From a phage: a DNA stretch of 64,000 bases. The position numbers and the translations under genes were made by a program. The stretch's first letter is position 1. Every line of letters starts with the position of its first letter. Of the stretch, positions 2,800 to 50,082 are shown piece after piece. The DNA lies in the sequence record NC_129898.1. One strand, 5' to 3'. The notes below the pieces were generated by a model. It ran no database searches. It was given only the letters and a program-made list of their open reading frames with translations, and was not told where the DNA came from.

Positions 2800-4871
2800 T
2801 GGCAACAGCTGTTTTTAAACCTTACCGTGATTACTCTACAATGGCTGCACGGTTTCATTACCGCACAGTTCAGGATACTGCAGTTCCAGGTAGGGATTAT
2901 GATCATGTTGAGGGCGATGTAACTATCCCGGTTGGGGCAACCAGTATTGAGATCCCTGTAGAAATTGTTGACAAATTGCCAAACAGGTTGCCAAGAAGCT
3001 TCTTTATGGAGTTTTCATCAAACTCCCAAGGGGTTATGATTGGAACACAAAGAGCAAAATGTACAATAGTTTCAGATGAGAATCTTGACAGAATATCTTG
3101 GGATACCGTTGAGGAGAGAATGTTTCACCCAAGATATTGGGTTACAACCACACAGCAGACTGAAAGCACCTGTATTGTTGCGGATAATAACTGCTGTATT
3201 AACCGTTTAGTGTCAAGAACATATGGAGGCATGGCTGGGTGCATTTGGGAAACAGTTGACAAGTATGACCATTTCGGCATTGGATTTGATGATCACTATG
3301 AGATGAGAAACACCAAGCTTTGGTTCAGAATGTCAATAACTAATGCCAGCAACTTCTCCACCCCTGAAAAGATGATTATGACTGTAGACCTTGTTGATGG
3401 TACAATCATCTATGTTCCTTTAGCTCAATATGCTGTCAGCATCTCAGAGGATAAGAATGTTGCAGAAATTCATATTGATTTCGAGGACTGCGTCGGGATG
3501 GACCAGAACAACAACATGATGGGTGTTGATCCTCGACAGGTGAGAAGGATTCTAATACCACTTATGCCTAAAGATTGGGTAAGTAATAGCACAGACCCAA
3601 GAACGGAAAATGTAGAGTGTGAGTTGCGTCTAGATCTGCTTCAGCCAGACACAGGCTGGAAAATGATGCAACTTAACAATATCCAGGTGAAAGAGCACGA
3701 CGTTGGGATCTGCACAGCATATGACGATATGTGGAACGTATCTCCTTTAAGGGTGTTGAGCAATATCAAGCGTCTGGGCTATACCGGAACCATAAACCAT
3801 TATGTTGGTATGAGCCATTATTATGATTACACATGGTCCGGAACCCAATGGTCTATAAACAGGACAGGGGCTCTAAACGCTGCAGCTTATAAATGGCACG
3901 ATGACTTTATGTATAATGCCAAGCGACATGACTTCGACGTTATGCAGTCTGTAAGCTTTGAGCTTTATAGCGATGCCTGTCCGTTAGAGTGGACCCAGAG
4001 AGATTGGAACGATAACTATGCTAAAACAGGCTATACGCCTTGTAGTTACCTCTTGTCTCCAACCATTGAAGAGGGTATGAATTTCCTTACTGCAGTATTT
4101 AAGAATTTTGCATCAGCCGCTATGAGAAACAACCTGCCAGTAATTATGCAGATTGGTGAACCGTGGTGGTGGTTCAATACCGATACTCGTAAGCCTTGTA
4201 TTTATGACTACCCTACAAAACAGGCGTTTTATGATGAGACTGGTGAATATGCACTAGACATTGGGACTGTTGACGATCCTAAAACTGGCGGTGTTTATGA
4301 CAAGTATGTAGCATTTTGTCGTGGTAAGCTTGGAGCTCGTATTGCAGCTATTTCAAAGGCAATAAAAGCACACGCTGCATCGGCTCAGATGACAGCTTTG
4401 CTGTTTTTTCCGACCATTATGGAAACCGAGCTTACGCAAAAGCTGAACCTTGCTGACCAATATAAAAAGGAAGCAGGTGCTCTTGATTTCTTCTGCACTG
4501 AGTGCTACGATTGGGTGATGCAGGGTGGTATTGAAAAGGCAAAAGAGTCTGTAAACATACCTATCGTTAAGTTAGGTTGGCAACCGTCTGAAATACAATA
4601 CCTTGCAGGGTTCGTTCCTAGCAAAGAGCTTGCTCCGGTATATGGCTACGACCCAACCAGGAATTACCAAGAATTTTTATGGAGATGCATCTGCGGAAAC
4701 ATGGCAACCATAGAGTATAGATACCCTGAGGTAAAACAGTATGTGTGGGCATACCCGCAAGTAATGTCTGACAGCATCACTGTTACCGCTAGGGATTCTA
4801 CCGTGCTTCATATGGGGCAGGTTGCTCTGAAAGGGTATGTAGAAGATGTTGTCCCGCCAGACTTCTCATAA
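2799..4871 (+). CDS. hypothetical protein, putative tail/baseplate structural protein
   Basis: 690-aa ORF translationally coupled to the upstream gene; lies just upstream of the tail-fibre genes. Confidence 0.6.
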   Translation: MATAVFKPYRDYSTMAARFHYRTVQDTAVPGRDYDHVEGDVTIPVGATSIEIPVEIVDKLPNRLPRSFFMEFSSNSQGVMIGTQRAKCTIVSDENLDRISWDTVEERMFHPRYWVTTTQQTESTCIVADNNCCINRLVSRTYGGMAGCIWETVDKYDHFGIGFDDHYEMRNTKLWFRMSITNASNFSTPEKMIMTVDLVDGTIIYVPLAQYAVSISEDKNVAEIHIDFEDCVGMDQNNNMMGVDPRQVRRILIPLMPKDWVSNSTDPRTENVECELRLDLLQPDTGWKMMQLNNIQVKEHDVGICTAYDDMWNVSPLRVLSNIKRLGYTGTINHYVGMSHYYDYTWSGTQWSINRTGALNAAAYKWHDDFMYNAKRHDFDVMQSVSFELYSDACPLEWTQRDWNDNYAKTGYTPCSYLLSPTIEEGMNFLTAVFKNFASAAMRNNLPVIMQIGEPWWWFNTDTRKPCIYDYPTKQAFYDETGEYALDIGTVDDPKTGGVYDKYVAFCRGKLGARIAAISKAIKAHAASAQMTALLFFPTIMETELTQKLNLADQYKKEAGALDFFCTECYDWVMQGGIEKAKESVNIPIVKLGWQPSEIQYLAGFVPSKELAPVYGYDPTRNYQEFLWRCICGNMATIEYRYPEVKQYVWAYPQVMSDSITVTARDSTVLHMGQVALKGYVEDVVPPDFS

Positions 4872-34793: not shown

Positions 34794-34823
34794 AGGCCCT
34801 GCCCGAAAGGGTGGGGCTTTTTG
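34794..34823 (+). terminator. rho-independent terminator
   Basis: Hairpin gccctgccc-gaaa-gggtggggc plus T-tract; near-identical copy at 45915. Confidence 0.65.
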
Positions 34824-34840
34824 CATTAGGAGACAGCAAA

Positions 34841-35605
34841 TTGAAATTTATCTACAAAGAACACTACCACAAAGGTGTTGTGTGGAGTCTATTTGACGGG
34901 TCTGGTGGTGCAGTTATTGACTGGGCAAAAGCTGGATATCTGTGCCTGTGCTTTAACGCAGAAGGCGCTGACCATGGCAGTTATGCAGAGGTGATAACCG
35001 ATCATCCAAACATTCACTACGTGGATTATTGGATTGACCCGTGGTTTCCTCAAGAAACTTTTTGCATGTACCCAGCTCCAGACTTTATTCTTGCATTTCC
35101 TCCGTGCACGCATTTAGCAGTATCAGGTGCTGCACATTTTAAGAAAAAGCTGGCTAAGGATCCTCTGATTCAAATTAATGCTGTAAAAGATGCTCGGGTT
35201 GCAGAAGAGTTAGGAGAGATTTACGATTGCCCGTGGCATGTGGAGAATCCTGTGGGAGTTATGTCCACACTGTGGCGAAAACCTGATTACCGTTTTCATC
35301 CTTCAGATTATGGCGGGTATTTACCGGAGGATGATGTAAACCCGTGGTTTCCTGAATTTATAGCTCCACGTGATGCCTACCCAAAAATAACTTGCGGTTG
35401 GATAGGCAATGGATTTATAATCCCAGCCACAAAACCTGTTCCGCAAATAGTAGATGCGGTTAGTGGTTATTCTATGCAACACGCTAAGCTAGGTGGAAAG
35501 AGTGCAAGGACGAAGATGATTCGAAGCCTTACACCACGTGGCTGGGCTAAAGCTGTATTCTTAGCAAACGAGCCTGCAGTAAGGAGCAGAATTAATGGGC
35601 AGTAA
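34841..35605 (+). CDS. compact cytosine-5 DNA methyltransferase-like protein
   Basis: Motif I SLFDGSGG, motif IV-like FPPCTHLAVSGA, motif VI HVENPVG; TTG 34841 chosen after RBS AGGAGA (track starts at GTG 34811 inside the terminator); no obvious target-recognition domain. Confidence 0.55.
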   Translation: MKFIYKEHYHKGVVWSLFDGSGGAVIDWAKAGYLCLCFNAEGADHGSYAEVITDHPNIHYVDYWIDPWFPQETFCMYPAPDFILAFPPCTHLAVSGAAHFKKKLAKDPLIQINAVKDARVAEELGEIYDCPWHVENPVGVMSTLWRKPDYRFHPSDYGGYLPEDDVNPWFPEFIAPRDAYPKITCGWIGNGFIIPATKPVPQIVDAVSGYSMQHAKLGGKSARTKMIRSLTPRGWAKAVFLANEPAVRSRINGQ

Positions 35606-37673
35606 ATTCATGGCATCTGCATACAACCGTTTCGGTGAGCCAAACCCGAAAGCAACCAAATATAAAAGTGGGGGGAGTGTGAAACGAGACTATCGTGATG
35701 AAAAAGAGGTCGAAACTGTAGAGACTGTTTTAGAAAATACTAAAATTGTCCCTGTCCCACAACAAAATATCGGACTAATGGCTGCACAATACTTTGGTGT
35801 GCGATCAGCATTGTCTCAAGAAGATGGGGTAACGGTCACTGCAACATATTTCCCATATTACGACCGCTACGGTAATCTATCTGGCTTTAAAAAGCGCGAC
35901 TGGACAATCCCTAAAGAGCAAAGAGGCCATTTCTCAGTTGTTGGCATAGTAAAGGCCAACTCTCAGATGTTTGGTCAAAAGCTGTGTGCATCCTCCAACA
36001 ACCGCAAGCAGATTAACGTTTGTGAGGGGGAAGGGGATGTTATTGCAGCATGGCAAGCTGCATATCAGATACAAGTGAAAGGTATTCTCACCAATGCTAA
36101 AGCCCCCGCGAAGGTGAAGCAGTGGGCTAAAGAAGTTCAGGATGGGATCGATGCAGTTATCAACGGCGGCGATCTGGCAGGAAAACCCTGCCTGCCTTTT
36201 GTTGGAATTAACTGCGGGTGTGCAAACGCCGTAGATACTTTTGCTAACAATGAGAAATTTATCCGTAGCTACGGAACAGTGGTCCTTGCAATGGACAACG
36301 ATGCAGCTAACGAGGTAGAGAAGCAAAAACACGTTATCAAAGGTGTTGAGGCCACACATAATATCGCAGCATTTTTGATGGCTGATAACGTTTACCACGT
36401 GGAATACCCAGGTGAGGTAAACGACCCTGATGGTGTAAAAGATATTCGTGACATGCTGAAGGCTAAAAAGCTGGAAGATATTGTCAACATGTTCCGTCAC
36501 CCAGTTAAATATGTGCCCGATGCTGTATCTGATTTAGAAGACTTCTCCATTGAGTCTCTTCGTAAGAAGACTTCCAATGGCGTGGATATCAGTGCGGAGT
36601 TCCCTAAATTGCAGAAGATGCTGAAAGGGCTCCACAAAGGCACCTTGATGATGCTGACAGGTCCATCTGGCGGTGGTAAAACAACTGTAGCCAAGAAGCT
36701 GGAACACTGCATCGCAAGATACTTGATGGATCCAACATGCCCTAAAGCTGATGATTATGAAGAGGATGATCGCCTGTGTCTGATTCACCTTGAAGAGGAT
36801 CCTGAGGAAGCAATCAACTCTCTGTACGCTAACCAGTTGGGGTTTGATGTTAAAGAGTTTGTTGAAGACCCTAGTCAGTTCCTGACCGACCAGGAGCACG
36901 CTGAGATTCATCAATCTTGGGCCAAGGCCGGAAAAATCAAAGTGTTCAAGCATTTCGGCTCCATCCCTGTGGATGAGCTGATCACTAAGCTTAAACAAAT
37001 GGTGTGCCTGTATCACTGCCGTTACATTGTGCTGGATCACTTGTCTATGGTGATTTCAGGGCTTAATGTTAAGGATGAGCGCAAAGAACTTGACATGGCT
37101 ATGACCCAACTAGCTGCGTTCTGTAAGCAGTTTAATGTGTTTATCCTGGTGATTGCTCACCTGAAACGTACAGAGATTGTACCTCCTAAGGATAAGGATG
37201 GGAATCCGTTGCCTTTCTGGTACCCTGTACGAAAAGAGAACCTTCGTGGTAGTGCCGGATTGGAGCAACTCAGCTGGGTAGTTGTTGGGGTAGAAGCAGA
37301 AGAGATGGTGGATCGTTCTCGTGGGCGTGTCCGTCTAGTAGGTCTTAAAAACCGTCCAGCAAAAACGTTAGGTATTGCGGACACTTTAGTTATGGATCCG
37401 CACACAGGCAAGTTCCACGATGCCAGCAATTGGTACTGGGATAAAGAAATGCAAATGTTTACAGACGGAGAAGGTGGGGAGGTTGTTTGGAGACCTCAGG
37501 CTATGTTTGAGGATCAGGATCATGCAGTTGTGGAAACACCTATGGGCAAGGTTGTGGCTGATAAGGTTGTAACTCCTACTGTTACCCCAGTTGACACACA
37601 GGAAGACCTTCAGTATGATGATCCGTCCTCTAACCACGTTCCTGGTTTTGAAGACGACGAAACACCTTTTTAA
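35595..37673 (+). CDS. bifunctional primase-helicase (Toprim primase plus DnaB-like helicase, T7 gp4-like)
   Basis: Toprim acidic motif VVLAMDNDAANE, Walker A MLTGPSGGGKTT, Walker B-like YIVLDHLSMV. Confidence 0.75.
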   Translation: MGSKFMASAYNRFGEPNPKATKYKSGGSVKRDYRDEKEVETVETVLENTKIVPVPQQNIGLMAAQYFGVRSALSQEDGVTVTATYFPYYDRYGNLSGFKKRDWTIPKEQRGHFSVVGIVKANSQMFGQKLCASSNNRKQINVCEGEGDVIAAWQAAYQIQVKGILTNAKAPAKVKQWAKEVQDGIDAVINGGDLAGKPCLPFVGINCGCANAVDTFANNEKFIRSYGTVVLAMDNDAANEVEKQKHVIKGVEATHNIAAFLMADNVYHVEYPGEVNDPDGVKDIRDMLKAKKLEDIVNMFRHPVKYVPDAVSDLEDFSIESLRKKTSNGVDISAEFPKLQKMLKGLHKGTLMMLTGPSGGGKTTVAKKLEHCIARYLMDPTCPKADDYEEDDRLCLIHLEEDPEEAINSLYANQLGFDVKEFVEDPSQFLTDQEHAEIHQSWAKAGKIKVFKHFGSIPVDELITKLKQMVCLYHCRYIVLDHLSMVISGLNVKDERKELDMAMTQLAAFCKQFNVFILVIAHLKRTEIVPPKDKDGNPLPFWYPVRKENLRGSAGLEQLSWVVVGVEAEEMVDRSRGRVRLVGLKNRPAKTLGIADTLVMDPHTGKFHDASNWYWDKEMQMFTDGEGGEVVWRPQAMFEDQDHAVVETPMGKVVADKVVTPTVTPVDTQEDLQYDDPSSNHVPGFEDDETPF

Positions 37674-37731: not shown

Positions 37732-40155
37732 ATGAGTATGTGGTCTTTCGATCTGGAGGCCTCTGGCTTGCTGGAAGATCCAGATCTTTATTATCACTGC
37801 GGTTTGTTTAAAGAGCTGAATAAGAACCGTTTTATGCTGTTCCTTCCTCTAAATGACCGCACACACTACTCGGAAGAGGATGTAGAGAAGGCTAAGAACT
37901 TTATTCTGGCAAAGAGAACTCTTTATAAAGATTTTGAGGTTCGCATAGCAGATTTTTCAGAGTTGGAAGGTTGGCTTACAGGCAACTCAGACTGGTCACC
38001 TACGGCTTTGAACTGTCATAACTGCTACAGCTATGACTTTATGCTGATGGAAAGATTATCCGGTGTTCATTTTGATATGTTCCGTGATCCTAAATGTATG
38101 GGGACTATTAACGACCACCAGGTTAATCTGTTTGATACGTTGGCGATGAGTCGAATCTTGTGGCCTGACCGCCCTTTGCCAAAAGGTTGTCCGGACGCAG
38201 TATTCAATCCAGTTACCAAGAAAATGCAGCCTGTTGGGCCTCATGGCCTTATGGCATGGGGCTATGCCCTTGGTAACCAGAAAGTTCAAATCGATGACTG
38301 GCGTGAGCTTCCGCTGTGGAAGTATGTGGATCGTGTGTTCGAGGACGTTATCATCCAGGAGTTGCTCTGGAAAGAGTTGGTAGCGGAATCAAAAGGTGTA
38401 TTCTACGGCAAATCTGACATGCAGAACTTTATGTATGACCCTGCCAAAGAGAAGCCTAAAGGATTCAAGAAGATTACCTGGAAGAATGCATTACGCCGAG
38501 GCATGCTGCAGCATTTCCTGATGGAGCTGCAGGCTCGACAGGGTGTGTATTTCGACATAGATGGGGCTATTGCTTTACGTGACCGCTGCGATGCGTGGAT
38601 GAAAGAGATCGCTGATCGTGTTGAACCACAACTTCCTTTAAAAGAGTTATCAATGTCTCAGCGGCCTAAGTTCCCTGAAAAGCCGTTTAACCAGGATGGG
38701 ACAATCTCCAATAATGGTTGGAAATGGTTAAAAGACAAGCTTGGCTATCCTGTGGATATGAGCGCTTTAGAGTTCAAAGCTCCTCCTAAGCGAGCATTTA
38801 CCTCCACAGGGGATGTCAGTAAAATGGGGATAAAATGGTGTGAAGAGATGGGCTGTAAAGACCCAGATAAGATGGCTGATTTCTTGAGAGGGTATATCAA
38901 AGGAACTTCTACACCACACCCTTTACCTAAAGAGCTAATGGATCAGGCAATAAGTGACCTACAGCAGAAGCGAATGCCTGACTGCAAGATACCTATGAAA
39001 ATCAGCAATCAGGACGACATCAAGCGATACCTGATCAGTGCTGGTTGGCTCCCAACAATGTGGAGAACTAAGGATGTAACTAAAGACAGCAAGAAGAAAG
39101 CTCTGCCTGATGCTGATGTTGATGCACGAGTATATGCATATATGGACGAGCTTTTAGAGTCAGAGTATTGTGACCTAATTATCAACTTCTGGAACAAAAC
39201 TGATGCTAAGTTTCAGACAACCGTGCACAAGTTCCGAAGCTTCCCTAACTCAGAAAGGATTAAAAAGGAAGTGTTTGGGAAGATACGTAGAAAAGCCAGA
39301 GCGCTTATTACTTCTCCGCAACTGAAAGATACGTTTGGACACCTATGTCCGAATCTTGAAAAGTTGAACGGAGAGATGGCTAAAGATATCGTCTTGTGGT
39401 TATCCTTGCGAAACCGTAGATCGGTCCTTGATCCAATCAAGGAGGATAAGGTTGATACTGGTCTTCTTAATCATCCACGTTTGAAGATTGACCATAAGCT
39501 TCCTGCTAAAAGTTCTGGATTAACAAACACTTCCAGACAGAAACACAGCATTTGTGCAAACATGCCTAAACCATCTCCTAAAGTGGTTATGGGTAAAGAG
39601 ATGCGTAGTCTGTGGGGTGTTCCTCCAGGATACTTTGAGATCGGTATTGACGGGTCCAACTTAGAGCAGCTTATCGGGGCTTGGGGTGCCTTTGAGTTCG
39701 ACAACGGCCTGTACTATGATGTTGTAAGTAACGGGGACGCGCACCAAAACAATGCTGAGGCATATACAAAGGTAGCAGGTAGGGAGGTGTCTCGTAACGA
39801 TGGTAAACCTATCACGTATGGGGTTATGTATGGGGCACAAAAAGATAAAGTTGCAGATATGCTGGATATCTCTCCAGAGCTGGGGCAGAGAGTAATCGAT
39901 GCTCTCTGGGATGCCAACCCAGGCCTTAAGGGGCGTAAAGAGGATCTGGAGAAATTCTGGGAAGCAACAGGTAAGAAATTTATCTACTCTTTTGACGGTC
40001 ATGCCATTTGGACCCGCTCTAAACACTCTTTGCTTAATGCATATCAGCAAAATGGCGGTGCATCGTTGTGCGACTTGGTCGGAATCCTCATGCACCACCA
40101 AATGGTGAAGCGTGGATGGTATGATGAGGGTGTTCGTCGTATTATTTATTACCAT
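37732..40155 (+). CDS. family A DNA polymerase, exon 1 (3'-5' exonuclease and most of polymerase domain)
   Basis: Exo I motif FDLEASGL; motif A-like IGIDGSNLEQL; motif B RNDGKPITYGVMYG; frame as annotated stops 1 codon after the proposed splice site, before motif C. Confidence 0.8.
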
Positions 40156-40483
40156 AAATAACATTGTGGCTTCGTGCAGTGATGCACGTCGAAAACCTCT
40201 TTAATTGACGGGAAGGCTAAGTTGACTTTTACACCTAAACATGGTAAAAGCTCAATATGCTAATCCGCAGCGAAGCATCCGAGAGGATGAACGTTCAGAG
40301 ACTATCGAAAGCATAGCTCCAACACAGTTTGGGGTGAAGAAGCGAGTAGAGTAGGCCAGCAAGTGCGGTCGAAATGAGAGGTGCCTTGGTAACAAGGCAG
40401 TGAGATAGTCCGATCCATACGGGAAACTGTATGGCTATGCACGTAATGGTGCGGGGTAGCTTAACGACCTACCTGAACTATTG
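40156..40483 (+). ncRNA. group I self-splicing intron in the DNA polymerase gene, no internal ORF
   Basis: Conserved core elements P (aattgacgggaagg 40203), Q (aatccgcagc 40262), R (gttcagagactatc 40303), S (gagatagtccg 40402); 5' exon ends in U, intron ends in G; guide-like gtgg at 40167 pairs with exon end ccau. Confidence 0.7.
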
Positions 40484-40837
40484 GATGAGTACCAACTTCA
40501 AGTCCCTGACACACCTAAGTATAAAACTGTATACACCTTCGACACAATTGAAGAGCTGGAAACATTTAAGTCCCAGCAGGAGGCTAAACTTCATGTGTTC
40601 GACGGTCATAAGTACAAAAAGGCACGCAAGGATGAAGAAGGAAACGAAGTAGTTGACAGTGATGGAAATACGGTATACGATCCTATCTTGAACGATGACG
40701 GAAAGCTTGAACTTATCTGGAGCCCTGTGGGCGAAATGGTGGTACATTGCTTCTGGCAAGCTTCTAAAATGATGGGCGTTCCGTTCCAGATCACAGGTGA
40801 ATACTTGTGTGGACGTAACTGGGGCGATTGTCACTAA
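40484..40837 (+). CDS. family A DNA polymerase, exon 2 (motif C and C-terminus)
   Basis: Joining to exon 1 gives IIYYHDEYQLQV (motif C HDE); C-terminus GRNWGDCH matches the NWxxxH end of Pol I-type enzymes; frame open from 40460. Confidence 0.7.
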   Translation, partial: DEYQLQVPDTPKYKTVYTFDTIEELETFKSQQEAKLHVFDGHKYKKARKDEEGNEVVDSDGNTVYDPILNDDGKLELIWSPVGEMVVHCFWQASKMMGVPFQITGEYLCGRNWGDCH

Positions 40838-44038: not shown

Positions 44039-45309
44039 TGAGCGTTATTCAACAATTCACCAACCCGATGAATCCGCGTGAAACTGTTTTACTGGCTCAC
44101 GGTATGATTAAACGTGTCAGCATCAAGCCTATCAAAGGTGCTGATCCTACAACAGGTATTAAAACCACTGTGTGGCAAGGTAAGAAAATCGAGTCCAGTC
44201 ACACCATCTCTTTACTGATTTCTGAACTGGATTCTTCTGATAACCTACTTCAAGGTGGTGAAGAAGTTTGGATCAGCATGGGTGATAAATTGCTCAAACC
44301 CGGTCATCAAGATTCCGTCTCTGTTAAAATTGATGACAAGTGGGAAACAGTAACGCCAGGATGGATCGTAAATATCCCTTTAAAGGCAAATGAGCATAAC
44401 GGTAAGACCTACTACAAAGGCTCATTGGCTAAAATGGTTAAGCTGGGGGCAGGAGATGCTCCAGCAGCCCCACAGCAACAAAAACAGCAACAAGGCACAC
44501 AATCACAAGGCCAGAAGCAGAAACCTCAGCAGAATGCCAATCAGGACGTTTTACGCATCTATGGTGATGTGACTCAGATTGTTGGTAACGTGGTTACTGT
44601 CAATGACCACAAGATTGGCGAAGGTGCTATGGTTGTCTCCGATGAGCAGCTTAAAGACCTGGTGGTTGGCGGTCGTGTTGCAGCTATTGTTGACAAAGAC
44701 ACCGGGAATATTATCAGCGGCTTCAAGGCCTACCCGCCTAAAGCAGAGAACGGTACACAAGGTTCTGGTGGTAAGCGTAAATCCTCTTACGACCCCATCG
44801 GTGTAGAGACAGGGCACAGTATCAATGCGTTGCAGATCATTCTGGATCGCGGGTTTAAGATTGACAGTCCTTTAGATGTGGCTAAAACACTGCACGTGGT
44901 CACCATCGAGCTTAAGAAAGAGTACGCTCAAGCCACCAACCGAACTGAAGATGAAGTAGGTGCCAGTGTTGGTAATGCGGTATTGAACGCTTGTCGCCGT
45001 ATTGACAAGAAGACGAAAGTTGATGATTTTGCAGTAGCAATTACTGCAGAGGCAAAAGATGTCTTGACTAATCTTGCTGAACCGTTGTATGATTGGATCA
45101 AGAACGGTGCTGGAGCCACTGACCATCAAGAGCCTCAAGCTGCCAAACAGGAAGCCTCCCCACAGCAAAACACTGTAGACGCCCCTCCTGTAGATGATGC
45201 GGAAGATGACCCAATGGATCAGAATCCAGCACAGTATGACTTCTGTGATGACATACCTTTCGCTCCGGTGGGTTTGCAATATGGCAAAAGTAGAATCCAC
45301 GCATTGTAA
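44038..45309 (+). CDS. putative DNA-binding protein with Gln-rich linker and SSB-type acidic tip motif (DDIPF)
   Basis: 423 aa; low-complexity [25 protein letters not shown] linker; DFCDDIPF at 45247-45261 resembles the SSB C-terminal tip but is followed by 15 more codons. Confidence 0.35.
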
Positions 45310-45904
45310 GAGGTGCATCAAGTGCGGAGAGGTGAAAAACCTCTCCGAGTTCTACAAACACCCAAAGATGTCTGACGGTCATCTTAATAAGTGCAAAGAG
45401 TGTTGTAAGAAGGCCAGTAGGGAGGCTGACCAGTTTTCCCACGACTCTTCAGAAAAAGGTGTAATACGCGTGTTGTACAAGGCTCAAAAGTGCAACAGCA
45501 AGCAAAGAGGTCACCCTCCTCCGACTTACACCAAAAAAGAGTTTAAGGAGTGGCTATACCTGAACGGTTACAAAGAGTTGTATGACCAGTGGGTAGCCAG
45601 CGGATACGACAAAAGGAAAAAGCCCTCTTGTGACAGGATAGATGATTTCAAAGGGTACTCTTTTGATAATATCCGTTTAACGACCTGGGGAGAAAATAAA
45701 GACAAGCAGACGGAGGATATTCTGTTGCATAGAAGCACCAGCGGTAGACGGTGTAAAAATGTAAGGAGGTTGGACATGAATGGCAACGTTCTTAAAGAAT
45801 GGGTATCCCACAATTCTTGTAGAAGAGAAACCGGAATATGTGTTGATTACTACATTCATGAAAAAATTCCAGCTCCCGATGGATACCTCTATGAATACTT
45901 TTAG
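45281..45904 (+). CDS. HNH-family homing endonuclease-like protein
   Basis: ATG 45281 (track begins at 45194); N-terminal CxxC...CxxC cluster; motif [25 protein letters not shown]; overlaps the 3' end of the upstream gene. Confidence 0.55.
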
Positions 45905-46745: not shown

Positions 46746-47171
46746 ATGACCTATGAAATGCCAAAACTGATTCGTGATGATGCCCAAAACGCTCACACCA
46801 TTATTATGGGCAAACGCATGGATATTATTTGTCATAAAGATTTCTGGGAAGGAAGTTACTTCACAGAGTATTTTGGTAAACTGGACAATGGTCTGCTGAT
46901 CCAGTTCTACACCGATGCGGAAAACAACATTCACTGGGAGTTCGAAACTGAAGATATCCATAAACTTTTCACCTTCCTCGGTATCAAGGTTGAGGCCAAG
47001 TTTGAAGAAGGTGAGTGCGACGATTGTGGATTCTACGAGGTAACAGATTTCTATCTTCCGAGTGGTGAGAACCTTTACTATGAAAGCCACTTCGGTAACT
47101 CTAATATGCCACAGAGCTGGACTGAGTTTTTTGAAATTGTGGAAGAGGAGCTGGCATATCGTGATTATTGA
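46746..47171 (+). CDS. hypothetical protein
   Basis: 141-aa ORF; stop overlaps the macro-domain gene start. Confidence 0.5.
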   Translation: MTYEMPKLIRDDAQNAHTIIMGKRMDIICHKDFWEGSYFTEYFGKLDNGLLIQFYTDAENNIHWEFETEDIHKLFTFLGIKVEAKFEEGECDDCGFYEVTDFYLPSGENLYYESHFGNSNMPQSWTEFFEIVEEELAYRDY

Positions 47172-47619
47172 TACTGTAGAGGGAGATTTAATCTCCCTTT
47201 TTAAGAGCGGCACTGGTCACCTGATCCACGGTTGTAACTGCTTCCACACAATGGGTAAGGGTGTAGCAAAACAGATTGCCCGTGAGTTCCCTCAAGCATT
47301 GGAAGCTGATAAAACGACTACCTACGGTTGCCTAAGTAAGCTAGGTGCGTTCTCTCGGTGGGAGCACTTATCTCCGAAAGGTATTGTATACGGAATCAAT
47401 CTGTACACTCAGTTCTACCCAGGGCCTAATGCTGAATATTTCTCAATTCTGAAAGGCTTTGAGCGAGTCAATGAGATATTTAAGGGATCGACTTTACCAT
47501 TCTACATCCCTAAGATTGGGTGCGGCATAGGCGGCTTGAAGTGGGGACACGTGGAGGACGTTATTAACCTTGCCACTTTTGATATAGATATTATCGTGGT
47601 GGAGTACAAAGAGTGTTGA
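47161..47619 (+). CDS. macro-domain protein (ADP-ribose binding / ADP-ribosyl hydrolase fold)
   Basis: GTG 47161; EGDLISL...LIHGCNCFHTMGKGVAKQI aligns with macro-domain N-terminal motifs (GD..., AAN...GGGV); IPKIGCGIGGL matches the phosphate-binding loop. Confidence 0.6.
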   Translation: MIIDTVEGDLISLFKSGTGHLIHGCNCFHTMGKGVAKQIAREFPQALEADKTTTYGCLSKLGAFSRWEHLSPKGIVYGINLYTQFYPGPNAEYFSILKGFERVNEIFKGSTLPFYIPKIGCGIGGLKWGHVEDVINLATFDIDIIVVEYKEC

Positions 47620-49116: not shown

Positions 49117-49454
49117 CAGAGATCATCATTTCAACTGCAGGGTATGTATTCCTGACAATCATTGCGCTGATCATCTTGGTGGTGGTGTATGGATTTGTTA
49201 TCCTGCCTATTCTTGAGACATTTAGTTTGTGTCGGTGTTGGAGAAAGGCTTACGGACCACAGCCGTGGAAAGACTGGCCTCATCTGTTACGCATAGCGTT
49301 CTCCTATGCCTATGATCACTCCAGCAGTGCATGCATAACTGGGTACCACGCCCACAATTGGAACTGGGAAGGGTTGGGGAGATGGAATGTTACAAAGACT
49401 ATACCTCTACGCATGTACAAAGGAAAAGGTGGGATTGATGGGAATACCTGTTAA
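49113..49454 (+). CDS. membrane protein
   Basis: 113 aa with N-terminal transmembrane-like segment YVFLTIIALIILVVVYGFVILPIL. Confidence 0.45.
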   Translation: MTEIIISTAGYVFLTIIALIILVVVYGFVILPILETFSLCRCWRKAYGPQPWKDWPHLLRIAFSYAYDHSSSACITGYHAHNWNWEGLGRWNVTKTIPLRMYKGKGGIDGNTC

Positions 49455-50082
49455 AGACAGAAAAGTATGTGGTCGTGGAGTAAACGATTTAAAAGACAAA
49501 GTCCCAATGTACCAATCTGTTAATGGTAAGAGAGTACCAGAACCCCACTATGCTACATGGAAAGCATTATTCCAGAGGTGCTACGGCGATAACTCAAAGT
49601 ACCATACAGGTTGTGAAGTTGTAGAAGATTGGTGGTTGTTCTCAGAATTCTGGAAATGGATGGATACACAAGAGTGGAAAAGAGACGCTAAGAAGTTCAC
49701 TCTTGACAAAGATCTGAAAATCCCTGGAAACAGAATATACTCCCCAGAAACATGCATGTTTGTTCCACCACAAATAAACACCCTATTTGGCATAAGACAG
49801 GCAGCACGAGGGGATTTACCTTTGGGTGTGACACTTAGAAAAGATGTAAACAAGTATCTCGTGCATTGTCATCGAGATGGAAAAATTGTTCATGGCGGTC
49901 ATTTCGATGATCCACAGACAGCACACAAGGTGTGGCAAGAAATGAAACTTGAGGAGATGAAACTTCAGGCTATTAAAAACAAAGATGAGATTTGGCTGTT
50001 CGCCATTAAACGTGCAATAACTATCCTTGAGAATGATTTGAAAAATAATAAGGAGACTATAACATTGGTGAAATTTATTTAA
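49438..50082 (+). CDS. AP2-domain protein, putative HNH-AP2 homing endonuclease
   Basis: ATG 49438; C-terminal GVTLRKDVNKYLVHCHRDGKIVHGGHFDDPQTAHKVW resembles the AP2 DNA-binding domain; N-terminal W..F..RCY...GC.V...W.FSEFWKWM motif. Confidence 0.5.
   Translation: MGIPVKDRKVCGRGVNDLKDKVPMYQSVNGKRVPEPHYATWKALFQRCYGDNSKYHTGCEVVEDWWLFSEFWKWMDTQEWKRDAKKFTLDKDLKIPGNRIYSPETCMFVPPQINTLFGIRQAARGDLPLGVTLRKDVNKYLVHCHRDGKIVHGGHFDDPQTAHKVWQEMKLEEMKLQAIKNKDEIWLFAIKRAITILENDLKNNKETITLVKFI

Follow-up and report, generated by a model that had tools for sequence, protein, structure and literature searches.

A predicted self-splicing, endonuclease-free group I intron in motif C of a Vequintavirus family A DNA polymerase gene

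The 64,000-nucleotide (nt) stretch of phage DNA analysed here (the window; record NC_129898.1) comes from an rV5-like coliphage (Vequintavirus), as 24 kb around the locus described below are 91–95% identical to many Vequintavirus coliphages. Over the 3′ end of its DNA polymerase gene the nearest record is that of Escherichia phage HMD-6 (99.2%). This family A polymerase gene is interrupted by 328 nt that very probably form a functional intron, and the locus is laid out as follows, with ORF standing for open reading frame:

37732..40155, + strand: exon 1 (808 codons) of the gene for the family A DNA polymerase, up to ...Y-Y-H
40156..40483, + strand: group I intron, subgroup IA2, 328 nt, no homing endonuclease ORF (Rfam RF00028)
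40159..40161, + strand: in-frame UAA at intron positions 4–6, which would end translation of unspliced mRNA after 809 amino acids, before motif C
40484..40837, + strand: exon 2, 117 codons plus stop, opening on the catalytic motif C Asp-Glu and ending ...GRNWGDCH

Two exons of one polymerase

The ORF at 37732–40161 closes at the TAA 40159–40161 after ...RRIIYYHK, and the next frame is open from 40460 (following a TAG at 40457–40459) and runs to ...GRNWGDCH at 40837, just as a first-pass annotation made from the letters alone had read them. The two exons lie in different frames ((40484 − 37732) mod 3 = 1). That annotation had proposed splicing after U40155 and after G40483, and excision of 40156–40483 indeed gives a 2778-nt ORF of 925 amino acids reading ...IIYYHDEYQLQV... 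or ...YYHDEYQLQV..., in which the HDE motif is restored. The junction joins U40155 to G40484 (CAU|GAU), which places the insertion point at the His|Asp codon boundary in motif C. The predicted complementary DNA (cDNA) junction is ...UAUUACCAU|GAUGAGUACC..., and the predicted junction-spanning peptide of the 925-amino-acid product is ...IIYYHDEYQLQVPDTPK.

The position of this junction can be read directly from alleles without the insertion. In the intron-less phage JeffSchatz the polymerase coding sequence (CDS) is 2778 nt long, exon 1 of the window matches it in start and length, and its DNA is contiguous as ...TATTACCAT|GATGAGTACC... at the predicted junction; the spliced protein of the window and the JeffSchatz polymerase are both 925 amino acids long and align without gaps at 98.5% identity. 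An artificial 120-nt 'spliced' query likewise finds a single uninterrupted match in many related phages, and a junction probe of 44 nt, which is too short for its halves to be scored separately, finds the junction contiguous in 57 coliphage-type and 82 Vibrio ICP1-type records. Because the intron-less alleles are contiguous at CAT|GAT, the junction is fixed.

The spliced product has the carboxylates of motifs A and C and the Pol I/T7-type palm–fingers sequence that mark a family A polymerase. Residues 469–658 of T7 gp5 align with it (E 3e-20), with YYHDEYQL lying on WVHDEIQV and the HDE on H653-D654-E655, so that the alignment suggested in the first-pass annotation bears out its placement of the intron within motif C. 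T7 gp5 D654 (Pol I D882) is a metal-binding catalytic carboxylate of this motif. Splicing also extends the Pfam DNA_pol_A match from residues 620–742 to residues 620–822, spanning the junction (E 1e-7). The C-termini (GRNWGDCH, and GPNWAICH in T7) are collinear and end together but are weak as a separate BLASTP segment (E 0.27), and neither Pfam on C-terminal fragments nor a PDB sequence search with exon 2 returned a match. The 'Pol I-type C-terminus' of the first-pass annotation thus has weak support, from the T7 segment and from the ending of Pol I, ...NW...H.

Structure and covariation of the ribozyme

Scoring against the group I intron covariance model RF00028, a check that the first-pass annotation had called for, gives a match at 40146–40433 (+ strand) that covers the full model (1–253) and scores 75.6 bits, the gathering score being 50 (E 2.2e-17). 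This was the single above-threshold match in an Rfam scan of the 64-kb window, and a permissive re-scan found no second group I intron. We drew the full secondary structure by hand on 40146–40493, and it contains the following elements, all on the + strand:

40203–40214: P element
40262–40271: Q element
40293–40304: R element
40403–40411: S element
40152–40157 (exon CCAU and intron AA) with 40164–40169 (UUGUGG): P1, with U40155·G40166 at the 5′ splice site
40173–40178 with 40183–40188: P2 hairpin, 6 bp, GUGA (GNRA) loop
40195–40201 with 40376–40382: P3
40206–40212 with 40264–40269: P4 (P4–P6 domain, 40206..40294)
40215–40217 with 40259–40261: P5, plus a P5a–c extension at 40222–40255
40270–40272 with 40292–40294: P6
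40276–40280 with 40285–40289: P6a hairpin, GAGA (GNRA) loop, where relatives carry an HNH gene
G40298 and GACUA 40300–40304 with 40406–40411: P7, the guanosine-binding helix, with G40300–C40410 as the guanosine-binding pair, a bulged A40299 and a pseudoknot with P3
within 40305–40345: P7.1
40351–40353: GUA linker between P7.1 and P7.2
40354–40357 with 40367–40370: P7.2
40383–40388 with 40393–40398: P8 hairpin, GUAA loop, followed by J8/7
40416–40422 with 40427–40433: P9, GAAA loop
40439–40442 with 40449–40452: P9.1
40455–40459 with 40469–40473: P9.2
40483: omega G (terminal guanosine), followed by exon GAUG 40484–40487
CAUU 40162–40165 with GAUG 40484–40487: P10, 4 bp

The core elements P, Q, R and S, which the first-pass annotation had recognised, can all be located, and the pairing it had seen between an intron-proximal gtgg and the exon end ccau is that of the guide GUGG (40166–40169) with exon CCAU (40152–40155), including the U·G wobble. 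The internal guide sequence, CAUUGUGG, occupies 40162–40169, and its CAUU additionally forms P10, which is absent from that annotation. The interruption has the sequence and structural features of a member of RF00028, namely the score, a P1 with U·G, a terminal G with P10, and a P3–P8/P4–P6 core with the P3/P7 pseudoknot and a bulged P7 nucleotide; guanosine-dependent self-splicing, which also belongs to the definition, is predicted for it. As the mark of subgroup IA2 the Pf-WMP3 paper cites two additional helices, P7.1 and P7.2, which lie between P7 and P3′ and are joined by G-U-A (PMC3428280), and P7.1 and P7.2 linked by GUA place this intron in IA2.

Unconstrained RNAfold recovers all of the drawn helices except P7, which is missed because it is pseudoknotted with P3, at a minimum free energy of −104.5 kcal/mol (z = −2.74 against shuffles). 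Within the P9.2 loop (40460–40468) the sequence UAACGA is nearly invariant in 13 introns of several genera, which suggests that this loop may make a tertiary contact. A pairing of this UAACGA with J2/3 (GUCG, 40188–40191) was considered and dropped, as the KASIA sequence lacks the compensation.

The intron encodes no homing endonuclease gene, with 5–9 stops per frame and a longest ORF of 37 amino acids, in keeping with the first-pass annotation, and tblastn of 11 endonuclease and neighbouring ORFs from relatives gave no match in it. It therefore lacks the intron-encoded endonuclease by which a mobile (homing) group I intron is defined.

BLAST with the intron shows that the same ...TACCAT|intron|GATGA... 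site holds homologous introns of 254 to 919 nt in several lineages, namely four Vequintavirinae genera, an Aeromonas Plateaulakevirus, Vibrio phage K470 and the Shewanella siphovirus KASIA. We aligned 13 introns at this site from 5+ phage genera, replaced endonuclease ORFs by N, and scored the structure drawn for the window. Standard pairs are formed in 92.9% of 985 cells, compared with 35–42% when the 3′ partners are slid by 1–3 columns, and both-sided changes occur in 46 of 91 pairs, compared with 11–17 in the slid controls. Column shuffles reached the observed values in 0 of 500 trials for four of five measures and in 1 of 500 for pair types.

These changes are spread over the whole ribozyme. 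Compensatory changes are present in all 6 pairs of P2 (100% of cells paired), 4 of 7 pairs of P3 (89%), 3 of 6 pairs of P7 (98.7%), 4 of 6 pairs of P7.1b, 3 of 4 pairs of P7.2 (100%), 5 of 6 pairs of P8 (93%), 4 of 7 pairs of P9 and 3 of 5 pairs of P9.2, as well as in P4 and P5, counted as one helix (96% of cells paired), and in P6 (97%). The four exon pairs of P1 are invariant in 13 of 13 homologues and 98.1% of P10 cells are paired, a near-invariance that is expected because both helices pair with conserved coding sequence. The RF00028 match, the covariation of the 13 homologous introns and the minimum free energy fold support a group I intron with exactly the boundaries that the first-pass annotation had put forward.

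Splicing, its alternatives and the neighbouring genes

Splicing would follow the standard chemistry of group I introns. The polymerase gene would be transcribed as one pre-mRNA, whose intron RNA would fold into a P1–P10 ribozyme. An exogenous guanosine docked in P7 would then attack after U40155, held in P1 by the U·G wobble against the guide GUGG, while P10 (CAUU with GAUG) would align exon 2 such that the freed 3′-OH of U40155 could attack after G40483. Ligation as CAU|GAU would restore ...YYH-DE-YQLQV..., the catalytic motif C, and a polymerase of 925 amino acids. RNA that remains unspliced would be translated to the UAA at 40159–40161, giving an 809-amino-acid protein without the motif C carboxylates, and active polymerase would therefore depend on splicing. 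An early stop codon at the intron start is also noted for the intron of Pf-WMP3 (PMC3428280).

We are highly confident that 40156–40483 is a functional, self-splicing group I intron of subgroup IA2 without an endonuclease ORF in a Vequintavirus family A polymerase gene. Some points nevertheless weigh against this reading. Splicing in this phage is a deduction: the sequence, structure, covariation and exact junction are observed, and from them we infer catalysis by way of established group I intron chemistry. Related sequences scored on a structure drawn on one of them inflate the share of paired cells somewhat. Finally, the spliced polymerase scores 31.7 bits against Pfam DNA_pol_A, under the gathering cut-off of 34.3 bits, because it is divergent, so that it is the T7 alignment (E 3e-20) that identifies it as family A.

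If the gene were truly split by a dead intron remnant, with the two ORFs translated separately into a two-piece polymerase, it would reportedly have a precedent in the mobE-split nrdA of Aeromonas phage Aeh1, and the records of HMD-6, JLBYU08, FV3 and rV5 do list two or more separate CDSs. These annotations, however, resemble automatic gene calls, and the curated BASEL records have a join. Phage CB7 does have a non-splicing HNH insertion (PMC7344957), but at the locus studied here all ribozyme helices are intact and maintained by compensatory changes, which is unexpected for a dead remnant, and the His and the catalytic Asp-Glu would fall on different chains. A possible TTG start for the downstream ORF exists at 40481, yet this codon overlaps the splice site, and the 28 nt before exon 2 show nothing like an evident Shine-Dalgarno sequence. 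We thus consider a split gene very improbable.

A group I intron with splice sites other than those proposed is less probable still. The Rfam alignment stops at 40433, 50 nt short of the proposed 3′ splice site, and therefore the model itself leaves the 3′ end unfixed; however, these extra 50 nt are P9.1 and P9.2, which are backed by covariation, alleles that lack the intron run on without a break exactly at CAT|GAT, and only this junction yields an open frame of 925 codons collinear with the uninterrupted homologue, with the U·G-bearing P1, the omega G and the 4-bp P10 all fitting. Inteins are present in related phages such as CB7 (PMC7344957), which could favour a bypass of the interruption in the protein, by an intein, or during translation, by programmed frameshifting or read-through. 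This reading is already effectively refuted by the stops in all frames (5–9 per frame in the 328 nt) and we give it next to no weight, as the exon 2 frame also differs from that of exon 1, no protein-coding signal was found in the 328 nt, and the strong RNA-structure signal would be left unexplained.

With splicing of a group I intron as the preferred reading, the finding is of use chiefly for annotation: the essential replicative polymerase should be entered as one protein of 925 amino acids made from spliced mRNA, and not as a 'DNA polymerase' of 809 amino acids beside a 'DNA polymerase' or hypothetical protein of 117 (as for HMD-6, JLBYU08, FV3 and rV5). For phage engineering or therapy it would mean that polymerase expression depends here on the folding of a ribozyme.

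Other genes of note in the window are:

34811–35605, + strand: DNA methyltransferase-family ORF (phrog_757, PHROGs), just upstream of the primase/helicase gene
35595–37673: DnaB-type primase/helicase gene, upstream of the polymerase gene, which begins at 37732
45194–45904, + strand: endonuclease VII-like ORF (phrog_1035, PHROGs)
47062–47619, + strand: downstream ORF with a partial Macro domain
49387–50082, + strand: HNH endonuclease-family ORF (phrog_953, E 5e-65, PHROGs), ∼8.9 kb downstream

The first-pass annotation had spoken of free-standing HNH genes nearby. This holds to the extent that the phrog_953 ORF lies ∼8.9 kb away, but it is overstated, as none adjoins the polymerase gene. The ORF at 49387–50082 is homologous to a gene that adjoins the polymerase gene of Vibrio phage K470. 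It was identified as HNH-family by PHROGs only, the Pfam HNH families matching 0 of 30 ORFs scanned between ∼5.9 and 58 kb.

Site states and comparison with known introns

The Vequintavirus-type records of a public phage collection, RefSeq/GenBank duplicates included, show four states of the site:

empty site: 57 records
276-nt ORF-less intron: 24 records, including rV5, RudolfGeigy and LL12 (Rfam 64.7 bits)
window-type intron with a 168-amino-acid HNH gene in P6a (∼838–842 nt): 31 records
window-type intron without an ORF: 3 records (HMD-6, JEP1, JLBYU08)

By these counts the window carries the rarest form, and 31 of the 34 records of its intron type differ from it in having the HNH gene in place of the P6a hairpin. 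The introns of HMD-6 and JEP1 have the same ORF-less form and are 99.4% and 98.8% identical to that of the window, and the ribozymes of EmilHeitz and FV3 are 97–99% identical to it outside P6a. Introns with the HNH gene have a segment of 528 nt exactly in place of the 14-nt P6a hairpin (40276–40289), as seen in alignments with EmilHeitz and FV3 (intron 3757–4598 of the extracted FV3 locus). Rfam gave no match to this FV3 locus at the gathering threshold, though the DNA alignment shows the same ribozyme, evidently because a net insertion of ∼514 nt in P6 disrupts its alignment to the model; the failure reflects a limit of the model and does not speak against homology.

An ORF-less intron is also present in Avunavirus (19-1-2, 1501–1817 of the extracted locus), with a P6a hairpin (CAUCCC-UAC-GGGAUG) that is nearly that of the window (CAUCC-GAGA-GGAUG), and its relative Av-05 (1001–1843 of the extracted locus) has an HNH cassette at the same P6a nucleotides. 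A nearly shared hairpin and a cassette at the same nucleotides in two genera suggest that the ORF-less form may be of long standing and not the product of a recent deletion. PVP-SE1 (1501–2419 of the extracted locus) has the same backbone and site with a LAGLIDADG gene in P7.1, while phiTE (1501–2187) and Aeromonas phage 4L372D (959–1697 of the extracted loci) carry in the P4–P6 region a 127-amino-acid HNH-like gene unrelated to that of FV3; for the P4–P6 domains of these two we found no fit to the structure of the window. Since it has no endonuclease gene, the copy in the window could not home by itself, and it would be passed on vertically, or else spread only through recombination or with the help of an endonuclease acting in trans.

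Within one genus this boundary thus occurs empty, with an ORF-less intron, with an intron that bears an endonuclease gene, and with another, diverged intron that likewise has no ORF. We tentatively propose, with confidence a little short of even, that a single codon boundary keeps all stages of the life cycle of homing endonucleases, that the form in the window may be the ancestral ribozyme from before invasion, and that at least three independent endonuclease invasions took place across genera (the 168-amino-acid HNH gene in P6a, the 127-amino-acid HNH gene in P4–P6 and the LAGLIDADG gene in P7.1). This four-state polymorphism in >100 Vequintavirus-type records offers convenient natural data on the gain and loss of introns and endonucleases; it illustrates established models and opens no new question.

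The 276-nt (rV5) and 328-nt introns are identical over their first 18 nt (40156–40173) and last 55 nt (40429–40483), whereas the cores are different, many of the changes being compensatory, and identity over the 300 nt of flanking exon is only ∼92%. In JLBYU08 a window-type core is combined with an rV5-type P2 (AUAGA...UCUAU). The shared ends and mosaic P2 look as if intron variants had recombined or undergone gene conversion, or as if P9.1 and P9.2 were under strong constraint.

Several further observations concern related loci. The P4′-P6-J6/7-P7 core (40261–40311) shares 94% identity across ∼51 nt with a stretch inside the terminase large-subunit gene of many Vequintaviruses (MZ501093 MaxBurger, 1241–1292), and therefore the two Vequintavirus introns appear to be related; that gene is where the rV5 paper places introns, and the terminase gene lies outside the window. 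The polymerase genes of 19-1-2, KASIA, phiTE, SSE121 and Av-05 have a second, upstream interruption that in every case brings along a separate endonuclease-like ORF (such as phiTE_009, Av05_00135, SSE121 gp072 and KASIA_p101); the gene in the window lacks this interruption. Finally, ∼17–20 'Campylobacter phage' records among MG065635–MG065690 (host given as Campylobacter jejuni) are 92–100% identical to E. coli rV5-like phages at this locus and show the same intron states, and their host labels look doubtful.

The class to which the intron belongs has long been known, and the intron is an ordinary example of it; it is in public records at 99% identity, and is annotated as an intron in its closest relatives. 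EmilHeitz (MZ501062) and RudolfGeigy (MZ501102) of the BASEL collection have the same gene, insertion point and intron boundaries, with the polymerase given as a two-piece join (PMC8594841), and the BASEL joins cover both the HNH-bearing and the 276-nt forms. The methods of that paper (Maffei et al. 2021) mention only in general terms that intron boundaries were set by comparative genomics (PMC8594841). Among the annotations we compared only those of BASEL have a join: the three records with the ORF-less form of the window are annotated as two separate CDSs and not as an intron, HMD-6, FV3 and JLBYU08 list two 'DNA polymerase' CDSs, and the rV5 record DQ832317 (739–3690 of the extracted locus) has a 775-amino-acid polymerase CDS with hypothetical ORFs 227–225 over the intron and exon 2. 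The rV5 genome paper describes a single polymerase of 775 amino acids and reports introns only in the terminase gene. Our literature searches returned no paper on the structure or polymorphism of this Vequintavirus polymerase intron.

Removal of polymerase-gene introns has been observed in RNA of related phages. In Pectobacterium phage CB7 (Certrevirus), a close relative of phiTE, reverse-transcription PCR (RT-PCR) and cDNA sequencing show the removal of both HNH-bearing polymerase introns, which are listed as shared with phiTE (PMC7344957); the phiTE intron is homologous to that of the window and has the identical ...TACCAT|...G|GATGA site, and it is through the phiTE sequence that CB7 is likened to it here. 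For Shewanella phage KASIA, which has a homologous ORF-less intron of 282 nt at the identical site, RT-PCR and cDNA sequencing show that the polymerase frame is restored, with the intron assayed not specified and the record joining three exons (PMC8541194). The phiTE/CB7 intron differs from that of the window in carrying a different HNH gene, of 127 amino acids, and its P4–P6 region is unalignable to the window's.

That family A polymerase genes of phages can hold group I introns has been known since the work on SPO1. Position 881 of E. coli Pol I is the His of motif C (H881-D882-E883), the same His|Asp boundary as that occupied by the intron in the window. The insertion sites described, in E. 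coli numbering, are 674 (SPO1, SP82, Bastille, Pf-WMP3), 676 (phiL7) and 881 (T7-like PhiI and W31; Bonocora and Shub 2004) (PMC3428280). By this description, on which the comparison rests, the T7-like introns resemble that of the window in lying at site 881 of a family A polymerase gene and belonging to subgroup IA2, and their endonuclease is located in P6a, as in the window's HNH-bearing relatives; they differ in having HNH genes (I-TslI in W31) and in their podovirus hosts, and BLAST with the window intron matched no T7-like phage. The introns of SPO1, SP82 and Bastille (Bacillus phages), cyanophage Pf-WMP3 and Xanthomonas phage phiL7 are likewise described as self-splicing IA2 introns in highly conserved coding sequence of a family A polymerase, several of them with a stop codon at the intron start as in the window (PMC3428280). 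In contrast to the intron studied here, however, they are placed at sites 674 or 676 in the fingers subdomain and not at 881, and all are described as carrying HNH nicking endonucleases (PMC3428280).

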